Below are positions 10,093-25,160 of a stretch of DNA of 26,819 nucleotides, piece after piece (position 1 is the first letter of the stretch; each line of letters starts with the position of its first letter). Source of the DNA: an uncultured Candidatus Saccharibacteria bacterium (lineage in GTDB: Bacteria > Patescibacteriota > Minisyncoccia > Minisyncoccales > UBA1441); NCBI GenBank assembly GCA_964437355.1, contig CAYTGH010000001.1, positions 1 through 26,819 on the forward strand, written 5' to 3'. The notes below the pieces were generated by a model, which was not told the DNA's origin, did not search any database, and saw nothing but the letters and a program-made list of their open reading frames with translations. Position numbers and translations under genes: made by a program.

Positions 10093-10779
10093 TTATAATT
10101 TTCTTTTTAAAAACAAAATAATAGCGATACTCAATATGCCAAAACCTAGGCCCAGCCCCAAAACCAACCATTTCTGAAGAGGTTTGGGCGTTTGATTACC
10201 TAAAATTAGATTACTCGGTTCGGGTGAAAATGTCAACTGCTCAAGGAAAAAATCTTCTTGGTTGGAATTGCTATCAAGATAACAGTTTTGGAATCGTTTT
10301 CTCTTTAGGAGTTGATTAGCTTCTGGATTTTGCGCAAAAGGATTTCCTTCACTTAAGGGGTTGTTTCCGGTTCCCCAAGCCACGGCGTCTATAATAGTGC
10401 CCTGGGAATTTAATAAAGCAATGCTGTTATTGAGAGAGAGAGTCGCTTGGCTTTGATATTGAGCTTGAATAAGTTTTGCAAACTCGTCTTTTGAATTAGC
10501 CCAAGTTAAATATTCCCCCGGTTCAATTTGGCTTTCAGAAGGAAAAACCCTTAGAGAATATTCTTTTCCTTCCCGGCTTCTTTTTCTTAGGCGGAAATTT
10601 TGAATATCAACAGTCTCGGCCGTTGGATTATAAATTTTTATGTAGTCTTGGGAAGACTGCGATCCGGCTATCTGAATTTCAACGATTAACAGATGATTGT
10701 TTTTTGTTTGAGCGGAAGAAAGCAAAAGAGGAAAAACAAAGAAGAACAAAACAAGCCAAAGAAAAATTTGTTTTTTCAT
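10093..10779 (-). CDS. Secreted, C-terminally membrane-anchored lamin-tail-domain (LTD) protein
   Basis: Signal peptide; LLIVEIQ...DYIKIYNPT...VDIQNFRL, IALLNSQGTIIDAVAWG, DSNSNQEDF typical of LTD; C-terminal TM followed by KRK. Confidence 0.8.
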   Translation of the reverse strand: MKKQIFLWLVLFFFVFPLLLSSAQTKNNHLLIVEIQIAGSQSSQDYIKIYNPTAETVDIQNFRLRKRSREGKEYSLRVFPSESQIEPGEYLTWANSKDEFAKLIQAQYQSQATLSLNNSIALLNSQGTIIDAVAWGTGNNPLSEGNPFAQNPEANQLLKRKRFQNCYLDSNSNQEDFFLEQLTFSPEPSNLILGNQTPKPLQKWLVLGLGLGFGILSIAIILFLKRKL

Positions 10780-13685: not shown

Positions 13686-14575
13686 TTCCGTTAAATCTAG
13701 GCAATGACAAGAAATGCCTGATTATCGATGCGAATGCTCTTATGCATCGGGCCTATTATGCTTTGCCGAGATTAAAGGACAAACAGGGAAAATTAGTGAA
13801 TGCCATTTATGGCTTCTTGGCTTGTCTTTTGAAAATTCTTAGGGATCAAAATCCTCAGTATGTTGTTGCTGTTTTTGATTCCCCGGGTAAAACTTTTCGT
13901 CATCTGGAATATCCCTTATATAAAGCAACACGCACGAAAACACCAGATGAATTCTATGCTCAATTTCCTGAAACCAAAGAGATTCTAAAATTCCTTGGTA
14001 TTCCCGTTTTAGAAAAGATAGGCTATGAAGCTGACGATCTTATCGGAGCCATGGCTCACAAAGTTAAAGACCCAAAAACAAAAGTCCTTATTCTAACGGG
14101 AGATTTTGATCTTCTTCAACTAGTGAATACTCAAGTGAATGTCCTTTTGCTGAGAAAAGGAGTTAGTCAAACGGCTTTGTATAATACGAATAAAACAAGA
14201 GAAAAACTAGGAGGGCTGGCCCCTAAGAAAATCTTAGATTTTAAGGGATTAGCCGGCGATTCCTCGGATAATATTCCTGGCGTTCCGGGGGTTGGTCCTA
14301 AAACAACCCTGACTCTCTTGCAAAAATTTGGGAGCTTGGAAGAAATTTATACTCAAATGGACAAAAAGACAGAAGAAATTAAACCATCGCTTAAGATCAA
14401 GCTTCAAAAGTTTAGAGACCAGGCTTTTTTAAGCAAGAAATTGGCGACTTTAAAAACAGATATGAAGCTAAATTTGTCCGTGGCAAAATGTTCTCGGGCG
14501 GGCTATAATAAGACAAAGGTTGTGGAAATTCTTGAGGGCTTAGGTTTTAATACTCTTATTGCTCGATTACCTTAA
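13676..14575 (+). CDS. Stand-alone 5'-3' exonuclease/flap endonuclease (PolA N-terminal domain homolog)
   Basis: IIDANALMHRAYYA, VFD, YKATR, GYEADDLI, TGDFDLLQL, H3TH GDSSDNIPGVPGVGPKT; no polymerase domain follows. Confidence 0.95.
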   Translation: MINVPLNLGNDKKCLIIDANALMHRAYYALPRLKDKQGKLVNAIYGFLACLLKILRDQNPQYVVAVFDSPGKTFRHLEYPLYKATRTKTPDEFYAQFPETKEILKFLGIPVLEKIGYEADDLIGAMAHKVKDPKTKVLILTGDFDLLQLVNTQVNVLLLRKGVSQTALYNTNKTREKLGGLAPKKILDFKGLAGDSSDNIPGVPGVGPKTTLTLLQKFGSLEEIYTQMDKKTEEIKPSLKIKLQKFRDQAFLSKKLATLKTDMKLNLSVAKCSRAGYNKTKVVEILEGLGFNTLIARLP

Positions 14576-15423
14576 TGAAATTTTTAAATAGTTTTTCTCA
14601 ACAAAACAAAGATTTCCGAGAGTTCCTTCGGAGAAAACAACTTTCTTATTCTACTTTTCTTTTGATTTTATTGGGAAGTTGGTTGGCTTGTTATGGGACA
14701 TCTGTCTATTTTGGCATTCTTAATTTTGGATCTTGGCAAAGCGTAGGACGCTATCTTTTATTGTGGCTAGCCTGGATTGCTATTAGTTTCTGGCTAGGGT
14801 CAAAGCCTCGATACCAGAAAATTATCTGGTACAGTAATCATTTATTTTTCGCTTTTATAATTTTCTTTATGATGCTTAGCCAGCCAGAAAGCTGGTTCTT
14901 GATTTTTTTTGAGTACAATCTTCTGCTTTTTTTGATTTTAATTTGGGCCAGTGCTTGTTTTTTTTCAATTGTCGATATTTTATTTCCTCTAGTGCTAGTG
15001 CTGGTTGGTTCTTCTGTTTTTTTGGGTCAGAATTATTCATTGTTCTTTGACTCCTCGTCTGCCGTTCTTAGTTTACTTTTGTCTTTTATTTTTGCGGTTA
15101 CGATTATTACGACATCGGTTTGGAACACCTGGAGAGAAACGGAATCTTTAGGGAACGTTTATCGAGAGAAACAGAATTTAGAAGAAACAGCTAAGGTTTT
15201 GAGAATTCGTATTCGGGCTAAAACCAAAGAGTTGCGACAGCAAACGGAAGATTTAAGGCAAGACAGCGCTTTAAAAACTCAGGCCCTTCGAGAAAGAGTT
15301 CAGACCTTAGAGAGATTGCGCCAGGTAACTGTTGGACGAGAGCTGAAGATGATAGATTTTAAAAAAGAGATTAATCAACTTCAGCAAGAAATTGAAAAAC
15401 TAAAGGATGGAAGAAGAAAATAA
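14575..15423 (+). CDS. Multi-pass membrane protein with C-terminal coiled coil (kinase-accessory-like, no catalytic domain)
   Basis: About 6 hydrophobic segments, then a coiled coil ending VGRELKMIDFKKEI. Coupled to its neighbours (TAATG overlap and a 17-bp overlap). Confidence 0.8.
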   Translation: MKFLNSFSQQNKDFREFLRRKQLSYSTFLLILLGSWLACYGTSVYFGILNFGSWQSVGRYLLLWLAWIAISFWLGSKPRYQKIIWYSNHLFFAFIIFFMMLSQPESWFLIFFEYNLLLFLILIWASACFFSIVDILFPLVLVLVGSSVFLGQNYSLFFDSSSAVLSLLLSFIFAVTIITTSVWNTWRETESLGNVYREKQNLEETAKVLRIRIRAKTKELRQQTEDLRQDSALKTQALRERVQTLERLRQVTVGRELKMIDFKKEINQLQQEIEKLKDGRRK

Positions 15424-20420: not shown

Positions 20421-21731
20421 ATGAGAGTCAAAGAACAACTTAAAAAAATTATTTCCCCTACATTTCTTCAGGCTTATCATTTTGTTCTAGCCTGGTTGGG
20501 CGCGATTATTTATCGCTTTCCCTCTAGGAAAATGATTATTATTGGCGTTACCGGGACGAGCGGAAAATCCACGGTGGTAGAAATGATTTATCATATTCTT
20601 GATTCTGCTGGTTTGAAAACAGCGGCTCTTTCTTCCATTGGTTTCCATCTAGGAGGCAAGTTCTGGTTTAATAATCTTAAAATGACAATGCCCGGCCGGT
20701 TTCGTCTCCAAAAGTTTCTTTTTCGATCCTGGAAGAATCAATGTCAATATGTAGTTATTGAAGTGACCTCCGAAGGTATTCTTCAGCATCGCCACCGAGG
20801 CATTGATTTTAATGTTTTGGTTTTTACGAATCTTTCTCCGGAACATATTGAGCGTCATGGCGGATTTGAGAATTACAAAAAGACCAAGGGGAAATTATTC
20901 CAAGGATTAAGCAAAGCCAGCTTGATTAAGAACAGGCGGTGCTTAGATAAAACCATGATTATTAATTTAGATGATTCAGCGGCTTCTTATTTTTTGTCTT
21001 TTCCAGCGGATAAAAAAATAGGTTATGGGTTGCGGTCCTACCCAGATAAGGCAGGGACCATTGAAGCGGAAGATATTGTTTTAACCGATCAGGGATCAAG
21101 CTTCAGGGCGAGAGGAACAAGATTCTCTCTTAATTTACCCGGAAAATTTAATATCAGCAATGCTTTGGCTGCCATAGCGGTGGGTGACACTCAGGATATT
21201 CATTTTTCAGTGATGGCTCAAGCCTTAGCTCAAATCAAAAACCTGCCCGGCCGATTAGAATTAGTTATTGCTCAACCTTTCCGCGTTTTTGTTGATTATG
21301 CTCATACTCCGGTTGCTTTAAAAAAAGTTTATCAAACACTCCAAAGGCCGGAAGGAAAGATGATCTGCCTTTTAGGGTCCTGTGGCGGTGGCCGAGATAA
21401 ATGGAAACGTCCGGTTTTAGGGAAGATAGCTTCTCAATTTTGTCAGTGGGTGGTTCTGACCAATGAAGACCCTTATGACGAAGATCCTTGGCAAATTATC
21501 AACCAAGTCAAAGAAGGGATTGATAAAAATTTCCCCCGAGATCGTCTTTTGACTTTTCTGGACCGGAGACAAGCTATAGAAAAAGTTTTAAGAATAGCCC
21601 AGCCCGGAGACACGGTTGTCATTACGGGAAAAGGGTCAGAATCACTAATGTGCTTGGCTCGGGGGCAAAAAATTCCATGGAGCGATAAGAAAATAGTTCA
21701 GGGAATAATGGAGAAGCTTAAAAATTTTTAA
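20421..21731 (+). CDS. murE: MurE-family UDP-MurNAc-dipeptide amino acid ligase
   Basis: GVTGTSGKST, EVTSEG, TNLSPEHIERH, PGRLE, VDYAHTP, GGGRDKWKRP, TNEDPY, GKG. Confidence 0.94.
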   Translation: MRVKEQLKKIISPTFLQAYHFVLAWLGAIIYRFPSRKMIIIGVTGTSGKSTVVEMIYHILDSAGLKTAALSSIGFHLGGKFWFNNLKMTMPGRFRLQKFLFRSWKNQCQYVVIEVTSEGILQHRHRGIDFNVLVFTNLSPEHIERHGGFENYKKTKGKLFQGLSKASLIKNRRCLDKTMIINLDDSAASYFLSFPADKKIGYGLRSYPDKAGTIEAEDIVLTDQGSSFRARGTRFSLNLPGKFNISNALAAIAVGDTQDIHFSVMAQALAQIKNLPGRLELVIAQPFRVFVDYAHTPVALKKVYQTLQRPEGKMICLLGSCGGGRDKWKRPVLGKIASQFCQWVVLTNEDPYDEDPWQIINQVKEGIDKNFPRDRLLTFLDRRQAIEKVLRIAQPGDTVVITGKGSESLMCLARGQKIPWSDKKIVQGIMEKLKNF

Positions 21732-23307
21732 TCATATAGGTCCCCTTGAGGCGATAGCCGAGGTGGCGATAGTATTCTCGCACGCCGATACCACTAATAA
21801 CGGCTAAACCGTGAAGAGAGGGAAATTCTTGGCGGACAATTTTTTCCGCCTCAGCCATTAATTTCTTTCCCAGTCCTCGATGCTGAGCTGATGTTGATTT
21901 TCTGATTTTTAGTGGGAGCTGTAATCCATAAGTGCGCAATTGCCTGATTAAAGCCTCTTTTTCAAGAACAGGAAAAAGAACGGGAGTCTGGTGATAAAAA
22001 GAAGAGGGAATGCGCAGGCGAAGAAGAGCGTAGAGGTGTTCTCGACGGCTGTCTTCAAAAGTCAAGAAAATTTCTTTTCCTTGAGAAGATTGATAATCAA
22101 GGCGAAAAAGTTTGAGCTTAATTTGCGAGGAATAGGATTGTTTGATTTCTCGACAGCGAATGCACTGGCAAGGATGTCCTTCTTCTTTTAATTCTTGCAT
22201 AATAATTTCTCTGAGATTGGAAATTTTGGCGGGACCAGCGACAATGCGGTTGGAGGGAATATCGCGGATAATTCTTTCTATACGGCAATAAATAGGAACA
22301 TTTCTCTTAGCCTCCTTGAGTAAATCGATCATTACTCGAGTGCTGTACGGATGGTATTTTTTAGCTAGCCAAAGTTGGTAGAGAGGGGCTTCTTTGACAA
22401 TAGCGGTTGGATAAATTTTTAAAAAGTCAGGGCGGAAACGCTCGTCAGCAAATAGTTGCTGAAATATTTTTCTATCTTTCTCAGACGTAGAACCATAAAG
22501 GTTGGGCATAAGATGATAGCCGATTTTAAAGCCAGCGTCTTTTAAGAGTTGGGTGGCTTTAACGGTTGCTTCGACATCATGACCACGGTGATTTAATCGC
22601 AGGATTTGATTATCTAAACTTTGAACGCCTATTTCAACTTTGGTAATCCCAAGTTTTCTTAATTGTTTTAATTCTTCGGGGTTAATAAAATCTGGTCTGG
22701 TTTCAACATTAATACCAATAATCCGATGATGAGCAGTCTCATTAAGTTTTTGAGCATCTTTTAGGGAAGAACTTTTTTGACCATTAGCGGCTTCGAAACA
22801 TTCTTTGACAAATTTTTCTTGGTAATTCTTAGGCAAAGCGCTCCAGGTTCCTCCGAGAATAATGAGCTCAATCTTATCAGTTGGGTGTCCAGTAGCGGTC
22901 AAAGAATGAAGGCGATTTAAGAATTGGGCTTTAGCGGAATAACGGGAACGAATAGCCCTCATTACCGCTGGCTCATTGTCTAAATAGCTGACGGGTAAAT
23001 TGTCTTGGCGAGGACAAAACAAACACTGTCCCGGACAAGGGAAGGGGTGCGTTAAAACGGCAATGACGGCGACGCCTGACCAAGACCTCACTCGATGAAT
23101 TTTGAGATTTTCCTCAAGTCGGAGATCTGGCTGAATTCTTTTCTCATCTACGAGTTTGTGATAAACTTGGAGTAAGATAGAATTCTTCAAAAGAGGACAA
23201 TGATAAAGGCGAGTCGCCTTTCTCTTGAGTATTTCAAAATCAGCGGGGGTTTCTACTGGATATTGCCGGAGATAATTAATAATTTCTAACCAAGGATAAG
23301 TATTCAT
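21718..23307 (-). CDS. elp3: Elp3-family tRNA uridine(34) carboxymethyltransferase (radical SAM + KAT)
   Basis: RSWSGVAVIAVLTHPFPCPGQCLFCP (CxxxCxxC), GGTW, ETRPD, TKVEIGVQS, KIYPT, CQCIRCRE, GNAT QHRGLGKKL, VISGIGVREYY. Second Met (23307) preferred because 23331 would overlap the divergent gene. Confidence 0.96.
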   Translation of the reverse strand: MNTYPWLEIINYLRQYPVETPADFEILKRKATRLYHCPLLKNSILLQVYHKLVDEKRIQPDLRLEENLKIHRVRSWSGVAVIAVLTHPFPCPGQCLFCPRQDNLPVSYLDNEPAVMRAIRSRYSAKAQFLNRLHSLTATGHPTDKIELIILGGTWSALPKNYQEKFVKECFEAANGQKSSSLKDAQKLNETAHHRIIGINVETRPDFINPEELKQLRKLGITKVEIGVQSLDNQILRLNHRGHDVEATVKATQLLKDAGFKIGYHLMPNLYGSTSEKDRKIFQQLFADERFRPDFLKIYPTAIVKEAPLYQLWLAKKYHPYSTRVMIDLLKEAKRNVPIYCRIERIIRDIPSNRIVAGPAKISNLREIIMQELKEEGHPCQCIRCREIKQSYSSQIKLKLFRLDYQSSQGKEIFLTFEDSRREHLYALLRLRIPSSFYHQTPVLFPVLEKEALIRQLRTYGLQLPLKIRKSTSAQHRGLGKKLMAEAEKIVRQEFPSLHGLAVISGIGVREYYRHLGYRLKGTYMIKNF

Positions 23308-23310
23308 AAA

Positions 23311-23976
23311 ATGAAAGATAATTTTGCTCAATATCTTCTAAAAAAGAATAAAGAGAATTACGACTTGATTGCTGAAGATTTCTCGAGCACGCGCTCTTCT
23401 CTTTGGCCCGAGTTGCAACAATTCAGTTCTTGGGTGGAAGAAGGAGACCGGATTCTTGATATTGGTTGTGGCAACGGCCGGCTTCTCAATCTCTTTTCTG
23501 ACAAAGACGTTTCCTATATTGGACTAGATAGTTCTTCTCGTTTGGTAAAGTTGGCTCAGCAAGATCATCCGGGGCGTGAATTTATTGTAGGAGATTTTTT
23601 AGAGGTGACTTTTCCAAGCGATACTTTTGATAAAGCTTTTGCGATTGCTTTTCTCCATCATATTCCTTCTGAGGTTATGCGTCTTAATATTCTAGCGGAA
23701 GCGAGAAGAATTTTAAAGCCGGAAGGTATCCTTTTTTTAACGGTTTGGACTCCCGCTAAAGCAGTTCTCTCTCCGTTATTTCAAAAATCTAAAATTCTAA
23801 AATCAAGAGATATCATTCGCCCTTGGGGGAAACAAACAGATCTTTACTGTCATTTTTTTAAGCCTAAAGAAATTATTCATCTGACGCAGAAAGCAGGTTT
23901 AAGCATTGTTCAGCACGGGGAATTGGGAGAAAAAGCGGTTCAAAAGAATTTTTATCTCTTGGCCCAGAAAATCTAG
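23311..23976 (+). CDS. Class I SAM methyltransferase, Trm9/ALKBH8-like
   Basis: YDLIAEDFSSTR...WP, LDIGCGNGR, GLDSS, AIAFLHHIPS...R, LTVW, DIIRPW, YCHFF. The methyltransferase call is firm; the Trm9 subfamily call is from motif recall. Confidence 0.85.
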   Translation: MKDNFAQYLLKKNKENYDLIAEDFSSTRSSLWPELQQFSSWVEEGDRILDIGCGNGRLLNLFSDKDVSYIGLDSSSRLVKLAQQDHPGREFIVGDFLEVTFPSDTFDKAFAIAFLHHIPSEVMRLNILAEARRILKPEGILFLTVWTPAKAVLSPLFQKSKILKSRDIIRPWGKQTDLYCHFFKPKEIIHLTQKAGLSIVQHGELGEKAVQKNFYLLAQKI

Positions 23977-24049
23977 GCCCTTATGGCTCAAATGGATAGA
24001 GCGCAACCCTCCGGAGGTTGAGGTGAAGGTTCGAGTCCTTCTAGGGGCA
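23977..24049 (+). tRNA. tRNA-Arg(CCG), CCA not encoded
   Basis: Acceptor GCCCTTA/TAGGGGC, D arm GCTC/GAGC with A20, anticodon arm CAACC-CTCCGGA-GGTTG, T arm GAAGG-TTCGAGT-CCTTC, discriminator A followed by CTA. Confidence 0.97.
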
Positions 24050-24126
24050 CTACTAGAAAGAGTAAACATCTATTGAAAACATTAATATAGAGAATAAAAA
24101 ACATCTGCTCTTTTAAACTCAAAGCC

Positions 24127-24136
24127 AAGGAGGTGA
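24127..24136 (+). promoter_or_regulatory. Perfect Shine-Dalgarno AAGGAGGTGA
   Basis: Lies 5 nt upstream of the ATG at 24142. Confidence 0.85.
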
Positions 24137-24141
24137 GAATT

Positions 24142-24333
24142 ATGATTTCTCGTTTAAGCAGGTTTTCTCGAGCTAAGACATCCTTCGTAGCATTATCGGT
24201 CTTAACTCTTTTTACAGGACTCATCGGCCTTATAGGAGGGCAATGGATTATCGCCGGCGTTTTATTATTTGTTGCCTTAACTAGCTTTCTTCTGGCAAAA
24301 ATTGCCTCAAAAGCTACTTTTCCTAAGGGTTGA
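24142..24333 (+). CDS. Small (63 aa) two-TM membrane protein of unknown function
   Basis: Perfect SD, basic N-terminus, two hydrophobic helices, downstream hairpin. Confidence 0.75.
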   Translation: MISRLSRFSRAKTSFVALSVLTLFTGLIGLIGGQWIIAGVLLFVALTSFLLAKIASKATFPKG

Positions 24334-24348
24334 AAACCCCAATCAATG

Positions 24349-24389
24349 AGCTCTCCGTAAGAGGTCAATTTACGGAGAGCTTTCCCTTT
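24349..24389 (+). terminator. Hairpin / probable intrinsic terminator
   Basis: Perfect 12-bp stem AGCTCTCCGTAA (24349-60) / TTACGGAGAGCT (24370-81), 9-nt loop, imperfect U-tract TTCCCTTT. Confidence 0.7.
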
Positions 24390-24415
24390 GACCTCTGAGT
24401 GAAATTTGATAAAAT
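24388..24415 (+). promoter_or_regulatory. Sigma70 promoter for the 24437-26306 genes
   Basis: TTGACC (24388-93), 16 bp, extended -10 TGaTAAAAT (24407-15). Confidence 0.7.
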
Positions 24416-24436
24416 AAAGAAAGTTTAAATCTAGCT

Positions 24437-24697
24437 ATGTCTAATCAAAAAGAAGAAATTTTAGTCGGGAAAATCACTCACTTCTTTCAAAAGATTATGG
24501 TGGCTGTCCTTAAGCTTTCTAAAAGCTTAGAAATGGGAGACGAGATTAGAATCCAAGGCGGAGAGGTTGACTTCACTCAGAAGGTGAAATCTATGGAGAT
24601 GGATCATCAGAAAGTGAAGAAAGCAAAGGCAGGTCAGTCTGTTGGTATGAAAGTAGAGGCAAAAGTTCATCCCGGCTATAAGGTTTTCAAAATTTAA
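24437..24697 (+). CDS. Small EF-Tu domain II / U32 C-terminal-like beta-barrel protein
   Basis: VGKITHFFQKIMVAVLKL...GDEIRIQG...FTQKVKSMEMDH...AKAGQSVGMKV, the pattern of the stand-alone 'translation elongation factor-like' proteins. Confidence 0.8.
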   Translation: MSNQKEEILVGKITHFFQKIMVAVLKLSKSLEMGDEIRIQGGEVDFTQKVKSMEMDHQKVKKAKAGQSVGMKVEAKVHPGYKVFKI

Positions 24698-24710
24698 TTA
24701 CTTTTTAATT

Positions 24711-25160
24711 ATGACAGGGGTCTGCTTAGGTGAAGTAAATCTTCAAGTGGTTTTCCAATTATTGCTCGCTGTCGCTTTGGGAGGATTAATTGGTATTGAA
24801 AGAAAACAGCAAGGAAGAATGGCTGGCTTGAGGACTTTTGCTTTGGTCTCGTTGGCTTGTGCCCTTTTTACTATTCTCTCTTTGGGGCTCATGGATCTTT
24901 CCTATTCTCAACCCGTAAGTTTTGATCCGATCAGGATTGTTCAATCTATTGCTATTGGATTTGGATTTTTGGGAGGAGGAATTATTATCTACCGGCGTTT
25001 TCAATTAGAAGGATTTACAACAGCGGTTGCTTTGTGGATTACCGCCGCTATTGGTATTAGCGTGGGTTTAAAATTTTATTTTTTAGCGGCACTTGTTACC
25101 CTTATCGTTATAATAGTTTTGTCGGGTTTCCGACATATTGAAAAAAGAATTTGGGAATAG
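24711..25160 (+). CDS. MgtC/SapB family membrane protein
   Basis: LGGLIGIER...AGLRTFALVS, DPIRIVQSIAIGFGFLGGG, GFTTAVALW. No C-terminal ACT domain. Confidence 0.93.
   Translation: MTGVCLGEVNLQVVFQLLLAVALGGLIGIERKQQGRMAGLRTFALVSLACALFTILSLGLMDLSYSQPVSFDPIRIVQSIAIGFGFLGGGIIIYRRFQLEGFTTAVALWITAAIGISVGLKFYFLAALVTLIVIIVLSGFRHIEKRIWE

Follow-up and report, generated by a model that had tools for sequence, protein, structure and literature searches.

The window analyzed here is a 26,819-nucleotide (nt) stretch of bacterial chromosome with a G+C content of ~39%, corresponding to positions 1 to 26,819 of contig CAYTGH010000001.1 (assembly GCA_964437355.1) from an uncultured Candidatus Saccharibacteria bacterium, a member of the Patescibacteria or candidate phyla radiation (CPR). 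It contains a gene for Elp3, the enzyme that acts on the wobble uridine (U34) of tRNA, which lies head-to-head with a gene for a methyltransferase resembling Trm9, and a tRNA gene follows the methyltransferase. The open reading frames (ORFs) and other features of the locus are as follows.

21718-23331, minus strand: elp3 as the longest ORF, 537 amino acids (aa), with a TTG start at 23331
21718-23307, minus strand: elp3 as read from the in-frame ATG at 23307, 529 aa
23307-23331: head-to-head junction of elp3 and the methyltransferase gene, either a 3-nt spacer (from the ATG) or a 21-nt ORF overlap (from the TTG)
23311-23976, plus strand: ORF for a Trm9-like class I S-adenosylmethionine (SAM) methyltransferase, 221 aa
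23977-24050, plus strand: tRNA-Arg(CCG), called by ARAGORN and Rfam (65.9 bits)

An earlier note on this DNA had described a full Elp3 head-to-head with the methyltransferase and a tRNA gene directly behind the latter. The ORF coordinates and a match to the Elp3 family model TIGR01211 bear out the first observation, and the tRNA does begin at the base following the TAG stop codon of the methyltransferase (23974-23976). The probable start of elp3 is the ATG at 23307; the resulting 529 aa is the length called for Elp3 in the two closest relatives (L166 and L167), and the 3-nt spacer is also found in L167. With so little space between the genes, the promoter of each would have to lie inside the coding sequence of the other. 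A scan of positions 21500 to 24800 for sigma-70 promoter and terminator consensus sequences returned sites no more commonly than in shuffled sequence. Because the intergenic region is shared and almost absent, the layout suggests that elp3 and the methyltransferase gene are co-regulated, and the head-to-head arrangement may provide them with a common regulatory region.

The product of elp3 matches TIGR01211 in NCBIfam with 541.3 bits (cut-off of 350) over model positions 11 to 521 of 522. Pfam identifies the Radical_SAM (PF04055) and Radical_SAM_C (PF16199) domains and gives a weak match to GNAT. The closest matches in the PDB are the archaeal MinElp3 (6ia8; 8.8e-125) and the bacterial DmcElp3 (5l7j; 4.4e-122). 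The protein carries the cluster motif CPGQCLFC and the acetyl-CoA motif QHRGLGKKL, and the three radical-SAM cysteines and the Q-H-x-G-x-G signature are invariant among 13 CPR Elp3 sequences. By these sequence features it is a complete Elp3 with radical-SAM and GNAT/lysine acetyltransferase (KAT) domains and a predicted tRNA U34 carboxymethylase. The Elp3 of Dehalococcoides mccartyi (DmcElp3; PDB 5L7J) and that of Methanocaldococcus infernus are likewise single-subunit enzymes with radical-SAM and KAT domains, and they match the window Elp3 with 411 to 420 bits. An N-terminal extension of ~75 residues is present in the window, archaeal, and eukaryotic Elp3 proteins, whereas DmcElp3 lacks it (PMC6367351).

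Searches of Pfam and NCBIfam with the methyltransferase returned only generic class I matches (UbiE, UbiG, and BioC), all of them under the cut-offs; no Trm9-specific family was returned, which makes these searches uninformative either way. The top sequence match in the PDB (phmmer, 4.4e-17) was 5cm2_Z, which is Yarrowia lipolytica Trm9 from its complex with Trm112; the next match was at 5e-12. The same chain ranked first (3.5e-17; TM-score of 0.83) when Foldseek was run with an AlphaFold2 model of the enzyme, which was built from 28 homologs with a predicted local distance difference test score of 92.3 and in which strands 167-172 and 176-181 form a two-stranded lid hairpin. A profile of 28 CPR homologs aligned end to end by hhalign with 18 named fungal Trm9 sequences (probability of 100%, E value of 4.3e-41, 202 columns), from the N-terminal Y..IA..FS.TR..W helix through the C-terminal N..A.K. 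Every motif that had been quoted as Trm9-like along the length of the enzyme was located, namely, YDLIAEDFSSTRSSLWP, DIGCGNG, IAFLHHIPSEVMR, TVW, DIIRPW, YCH, and a C-terminal AQKI, and the fungal Trm9 consensus aligned to them reads VYEQIASHFSxTRYKPWP, DVGCGNGKY, SIAVIHHLSTPERR, YVWALEQ, QDVMVPW, and RYYHLY. As judged by these alignments, the agreement with fungal Trm9 is far above chance.

When a hidden Markov model (HMM) based on fungal Trm9 alone was applied to 30,464 ORFs in 1.95 Mb of CPR loci, it recovered 153 family members with 26 to 122 bits (median of 91), including the window enzyme at 93 bits. Only two ORFs outside the family were recovered (24 and 16 bits), and ~8 further class I methyltransferase ORFs from this DNA went unscored. 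In a search of the PDB with the family profile, Trm9 came first at 4e-26. The fungal HMM and the profile alignment thus place the window protein with Trm9, as had been claimed from its motifs, and its description as Trm9-like is supported by sequence, profile, fold, and active-site comparisons. The fungal Trm9-Trm112 enzymes (Saccharomyces cerevisiae; Y. lipolytica, PDB 5CM2) and the animal ALKBH8-TRMT112 share with the window enzyme a class I SAM methyltransferase of ~220 to 280 aa. Common to them and the window family are the N-terminal Y..IA..FS.TR..W helix, DxGCGNG, the HH motif, the W after beta-5, the C-terminal N, and the lid hairpin with PW and RYYH, in which the counterparts of yeast R241 and Y243 are replaced in the window copy. 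The window enzyme differs from them in being bacterial, in sharing an identity of only 26 to 28%, and in having its gene head-to-head with elp3. The family profile matched 1,717 representatives of 50%-identity clusters at an E value of 1e-30 or below, a set whose individual identities are unchecked, and automated JGI annotation already calls a few family members "TRM9," so that the resemblance has not gone wholly unseen.

Fifteen residues of yeast Trm9 have been mutated, and eight of them are essential, with alanine mutants at these positions killing the enzyme (Létoquart et al., PMC4678810, Table 2). The state of the eight positions (S. cerevisiae Trm9 numbering) among 109 CPR homologs and in the window is as follows.

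R29: kept in 108 of 109; R28 in the window
D72: kept in 109 of 109; D73 in the window
H116: kept in 104 of 109; H117 in the window
W145: kept in 109 of 109; W146 in the window
W168: W in 95 and F in 13 of 109; W172 in the window
R241: kept in 93 of 109; L178 in the window
Y243: Y or F in 64 of 109; C180 in the window
N271: kept in 104 of 109; N213 in the window

Residues K31, R122, E148, Q149, and D270, which are dispensable in yeast, are unconserved across the same homologs. This pattern is the one expected if the family has retained a pocket for binding and catalysis on 5-carboxymethyluridine (cm5U).

The two genes are tightly linked. The methyltransferase profile, scanned against one genome per GTDB species, yielded 80 loci, all from metagenome-assembled genomes of Patescibacteria/CPR, at identities of 33 to 46%. 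In 76 of the 78 informative loci (76 of 80 overall, with two of the four exceptions cut off upstream), Elp3 is encoded upstream on the other strand. In the reverse test, a scan of metagenome contigs centered on Elp3, the methyltransferase was found in 73 of 77 informative loci and was immediately divergent in 69; the same tight arrangement is seen in most of the methyltransferase-centered loci. As a control for general synteny, all flanking ORFs were clustered, and the commonest families occurred in 56, 55, and 39 of ~150 loci, a maximum of ~37%. Measured against that ceiling, the linkage between elp3 and the methyltransferase gene is conserved.

Some of these loci depart from the common pattern. 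In three loci from Lloydbacteria (L060, L064, and L069), ~1 kb separates elp3 from the methyltransferase gene and several other class I methyltransferase ORFs are found nearby. One locus labeled as Candidatus Pacearchaeota archaeon (L023; DAOPTN010000030.1) carries a CPR-type Elp3, the methyltransferase, and tRNA-Arg(CCG) and represents either a mis-binned contig or a transfer between CPR and DPANN.

The pair had been proposed as a feature of a CPR bacterium, and it is indeed seen across the CPR; it is not, however, confined to them, as D. mccartyi also carries the divergent genes. Its complete genome, CP019867.1 (L161:7283-9380), has a divergent gene for a 224-aa methyltransferase 43 nt upstream of the gene for an Elp3 that is 98% identical to the crystallized DmcElp3. 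Three further non-CPR loci (L162, L164, and L165) contain the same divergent pair among different flanking genes. The non-CPR methyltransferases keep the R, HH, W, PW, RYY, and N residues and score 59 to 69 bits with the fungal Trm9 HMM. No mention of a methyltransferase partner of DmcElp3 was found in the literature searched, which did not include the 2016 DmcElp3 paper. A QueH gene and a GNAT gene are located ~2 kb from the D. mccartyi pair, and both are conserved in L162 and L164.

The pathway in which Elp3 acts first and Trm9 second is established in eukaryotes, and the synthesis of cm5U34 is established for archaeal Elp3. The same order is established in Haloferax, where the 5-methoxycarbonylmethyluridine (mcm5U) of H. 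volcanii has been shown to be Trm9 dependent (PMC6144793), and clustering of the elp3 and trm9 genes has been described in Sulfolobus (PMC2584109). The divergent pair in the window is likely a two-step module of this archaeal/eukaryotic type for modification of the wobble uridine. In the first step, the stand-alone Elp3, with its radical-SAM and acetyl-CoA/KAT domains, would carboxymethylate C5 of U34 in a subset of tRNAs to give cm5U34, as expected from its family membership and from published Elp3 biochemistry. The Trm9-like enzyme would then use SAM to methyl-esterify the carboxyl group of cm5U34, yielding mcm5U34; the conservation of its active site and the linkage of the genes both point to this step, and the order would be that of fungal Trm9 and ALKBH8, which act after Elp3. 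Functional coupling of the methyltransferase to Elp3 is suggested by genomic linkage, that is, by the two sets of CPR loci and by Dehalococcoidia. The two-gene pathway that the earlier note had envisaged for a CPR bacterium is thus supported by sequence, profile, fold, active-site, and linkage tests, with its function remaining a prediction. The archaeal systems (Haloferax HVO_1032 and the Sulfolobus solfataricus cluster) likewise combine a prokaryotic stand-alone Elp3 with Trm9.

Several points weigh against this assignment. Because CPR genomes retain some gene order, some of the linkage reflects common descent. The search of the PDB with the family profile puts the generic methyltransferases 1ve3 and 3sm3 little below Trm9, in a comparison in which the solved Trm9 chain lacks the N-terminal 37 residues; with so narrow a margin, this search was not relied on. 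The comparisons with Trm9 were confined to fungal sequences. Products of the 5-carboxymethyl type (xcm5U) have never been shown even in Dehalococcoides, according to a review (PMC7663514). Finally, the window methyltransferase lacks two of the eight residues essential in yeast, with R241 replaced by L178 and Y243 by C180, and a leucine at the former position is also found in ~10 close relatives (11 of 109 family members). Similar considerations would favor an enzyme with the fold of Trm9 that acts on another substrate (a different RNA position, a protein, or a small molecule), with its adjacency to elp3 reflecting inherited gene order or shared regulation: its family matches are generic and under cut-offs, uncharacterized methyltransferases score near Trm9 in the PDB profile search, and the CPR loci show some wider synteny. 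Such an explanation would leave unaccounted for the conservation of residues specific to the Trm9 active site while dispensable ones drift, a pairing frequency of ~95% compared with at most 37% for any flanking family, the persistence of the pairing in a second phylum among different neighbors, and the ability of the fungal Trm9 HMM to tell this family apart from the other methyltransferases of these loci. We therefore regard a different substrate as improbable.

The replacement of two essential residues raises a second alternative, in which the family as a whole consists of cm5U methyltransferases but the window copy, together with the subclade that carries Leu178 and Cys180, is weakened or shifted in specificity, so that the organism stops at cm5U or makes, for example, 5-carbamoylmethyluridine (ncm5U). 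In its favor, the yeast R241A mutant keeps ~1% of activity and Y243A ~10% (PMC4678810), and the leucine is common to 11 of the 109 sequences. The likeness between YCH in the window and YYH in yeast that had been pointed out earlier holds insofar as the motif is present, but the two are not equivalent, since the cysteine stands where yeast has the essential Y243. On the other side, six of the eight essential residues remain, and the ratio of nonsynonymous to synonymous substitution rates (dN/dS) of the methyltransferase within the Leu178 subclade, 0.08 to 0.13, equals those of Elp3 and flanking housekeeping genes, an indication from sequence comparison that the window enzyme is under purifying selection. 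A further possibility, that the methyltransferase is a decaying gene in this subclade, was rejected because its dN/dS matches that of Elp3 and the housekeeping neighbors.

The leucine-bearing sequences also suggest how the missing arginine might be replaced. Position 170 is Arg or His in 8 of the 12 sequences with Leu178, compared with Arg in 4 of 93 Arg-bearing sequences, and, as read from the register of the hairpin rather than from checked coordinates, it would face position 178 on the neighboring strand. The arginine may thus have been relocated from 178 to 170, where Arg170 would compensate for its loss, although the pattern may represent only one or two evolutionary events. Taken with the dN/dS values, the pattern at position 170 argues that the window copy is still functional, and a weakened or redirected enzyme appears improbable.

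Trm9 of Yarrowia binds Trm112 through a hydrophobic patch consisting of V59, F78, V102, A110, P112, and F116, and the yeast L91R mutation, at the equivalent of Yarrowia V102, breaks the complex (PMC4678810). In the CPR family, the counterpart of V59 is Lys or Arg in 82% of sequences and that of F78 is Asp, Glu, Asn, or Ser in most, such that these two contacts are charged or polar in ~90% of sequences; the counterpart of V102 is Gln or Arg in 39%. An HMM was built from five bacterial Trm112/UPF0434 sequences, four from PDB alignments and one a YcaR sequence that a PDB search confirmed as a family member. Neither this HMM (best E value of 2.1) nor a motif regular expression found a Trm112/UPF0434-like ORF in 161 neighborhoods totaling 1.95 Mb, with ~12 kb per genome examined. 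Since charged residues have taken the place of the hydrophobic surface that binds Trm112, the methyltransferase can probably dispense with this partner, as the earlier note had suggested it might, although this point carries less weight than the two-step module itself. Fungal Trm9 has the hydrophobic patch, whereas the window family has Lys/Arg and acidic or polar residues in its place and no trm112 nearby; Haloferax Trm9 needs Trm112, whereas the window enzyme is predicted not to. In the proposed pathway, the Trm9-like enzyme would accordingly act alone in the second step, as its surface residues suggest.

A canonical Trm9 that still needs a zinc-knuckle partner of the Trm112 type, encoded elsewhere in the genome, has to be weighed against this prediction. 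Eukaryotic and Haloferax Trm9 proteins are insoluble or inactive without Trm112 (PMC4678810, PMC6144793), bacterial orthologs of Trm112 (YcaR/UPF0434) exist without known partners (PMC5372719), and interface residues F116 and D117 are conserved, though as part of a generic methyltransferase motif. The charged or polar state of the V59 and F78 positions, the frequent Gln or Arg at V102 that recalls the complex-breaking yeast L91R, and the empty search of the 161 neighborhoods (again, ~12 kb per genome) all speak against such a dependence, which we consider rather unlikely.

Other wobble-uridine systems are distinguishable from the window pair. The usual bacterial system, in which MnmE and MnmG form 5-carboxymethylaminomethyluridine and 5-methylaminomethyluridine, targets the same atom, C5 of the wobble U34 in tRNAs for split codon boxes, but its enzymes and chemistry are unrelated and involve a GTPase and a flavin adenine dinucleotide enzyme that use glycine and methylene-tetrahydrofolate. 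The literature search brought up nothing on a lack of mnmE and mnmG in genomes with the elp3-methyltransferase pair. CmoM of Escherichia coli converts uridine 5-oxyacetic acid (cmo5U) to its methyl ester (mcmo5U). It is a Methyltransf_11 enzyme that forms an analogous SAM-dependent methyl ester on a side-chain carboxylate of the wobble uridine, whereas the signature residues of the window enzyme match Trm9 and its partner gene is elp3 rather than cmoA or cmoB. No PDB match of the methyltransferase was named CmoM or SmtA, a weak negative given that the presence of a CmoM chain in the searched PDB set is unconfirmed.

A 2020 review restricts bacterial Elp3, which it treats as rare, to Dehalococcoides and notes the lack of evidence for xcm5U products (PMC7663514), and according to a 2017 review of Trm112, no bacterial genes similar to the eukaryotic methyltransferase partners of Trm112 are detectable (PMC5372719). 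The literature search returned no paper linking Elp3 or Trm9 with CPR, Patescibacteria, or Parcubacteria. Because the pair recurs in ~95% of related loci and in Dehalococcoides, a pathway thought to be nearly absent from bacteria looks, from these genomes, to be widespread there. What is new relative to the known Elp3-Trm9 pathway is its bacterial setting, the changed partner surface, and the locked divergent arrangement of the genes, with a Trm9-type partner tightly paired with Elp3 across Patescibacteria and present also beside the crystallized Elp3 of D. mccartyi. If the assignment is correct, the production of mcm5U by bacteria could be tested directly with two small proteins that are probably soluble, and a Trm9 that may fold without Trm112 could aid structural work on the recognition of tRNA by Trm9, so far limited by the insolubility of Trm9. 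Decoding accuracy in reduced genomes and the exchange of genes between archaea and CPR bacteria are further questions on which it would bear. A broader proposal is that in Patescibacteria and Dehalococcoidia the main system for C5 modification of U34 (xm5U34) is not MnmE/MnmG but a self-sufficient Trm9 that needs no Trm112 and works together with stand-alone Elp3, the two perhaps forming a physical complex encoded by the locked pair. Decoding of the mcm5U type would then be native to much of the bacterial domain; we offer this proposal tentatively and consider it somewhat doubtful as a whole.

The tRNA gene behind the methyltransferase had been named in the earlier note beside the two enzymes under the candidate pathway, to which we do not assign it. 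Its anticodon is CCG, and because the wobble base is C34 the tRNA cannot take a C5 modification of U34. The gene is a neighbor conserved in one sub-lineage. Of 144 informative loci, 55 carry tRNA-Arg(CCG) behind the methyltransferase gene in the same orientation, with a median gap of 13 nt; it is about as frequent as the best flanking protein gene, and its frequency rises with the identity of the methyltransferase to that of the window, from 4 of 42 loci below 36% to 24 of 32 at 40 to 44%. No other tRNA comes close to it in number around the pair, where it makes up 58 of the 94 tRNAs found. With the C34 anticodon and a linkage that tracks relatedness, tRNA-Arg(CCG) was ruled out both as a substrate and as a pathway component. 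It is probably co-transcribed with the methyltransferase as a neighbor in a conserved block. In the window (23974-24050) and in the two closest relatives (L166:6664-6739 and L167:3557-3632), the tRNA starts at the first base past the methyltransferase stop, and processing by RNase P would therefore be expected to cut the methyltransferase mRNA exactly at its stop codon. The CCA end of the tRNA is not encoded.

Apart from the pair, the window contains typical bacterial genes, including those encoding a class A penicillin-binding protein, tyrosyl-tRNA synthetase, RuvC, YebC, TsaE, ribosomal protein S20, the delta subunit of DNA polymerase III, and a Mur ligase. The dnaA and dnaN genes lie at its start (52-2752) and the cumulative GC skew climbs over its entire length; the region is probably located just past the replication origin. 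A protein with a lamin-tail domain (LTD) is encoded at 10093-10779 on the minus strand. Two plus-strand ORFs, at 14575-15423 (282 aa) and 24133-24333 (66 aa, membrane-like), have no match in Pfam or NCBIfam.

Among the CPR loci (L001 to L160), ~55 have a gene for a Rossmann protein of ~190 aa resembling LOG/TIGR00725 directly after the methyltransferase gene, which the window lacks, and a Nif3-like gene is often found beyond elp3; both names were read from sequence rather than taken from a family search. The plus-strand ORF at 24437-24697 in the window encodes an 86-aa protein with a weak match to domain 2 of EF-Tu (PF03144; 27.2 bits with a cut-off of 30.3) and to the domain II region of EF-1alpha/SelB in NCBIfam, and it may represent a stand-alone beta-barrel resembling those of translation factors. 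Homologs of this protein are encoded on the methyltransferase side of the pair, on the same strand, in 56 of ~150 loci.

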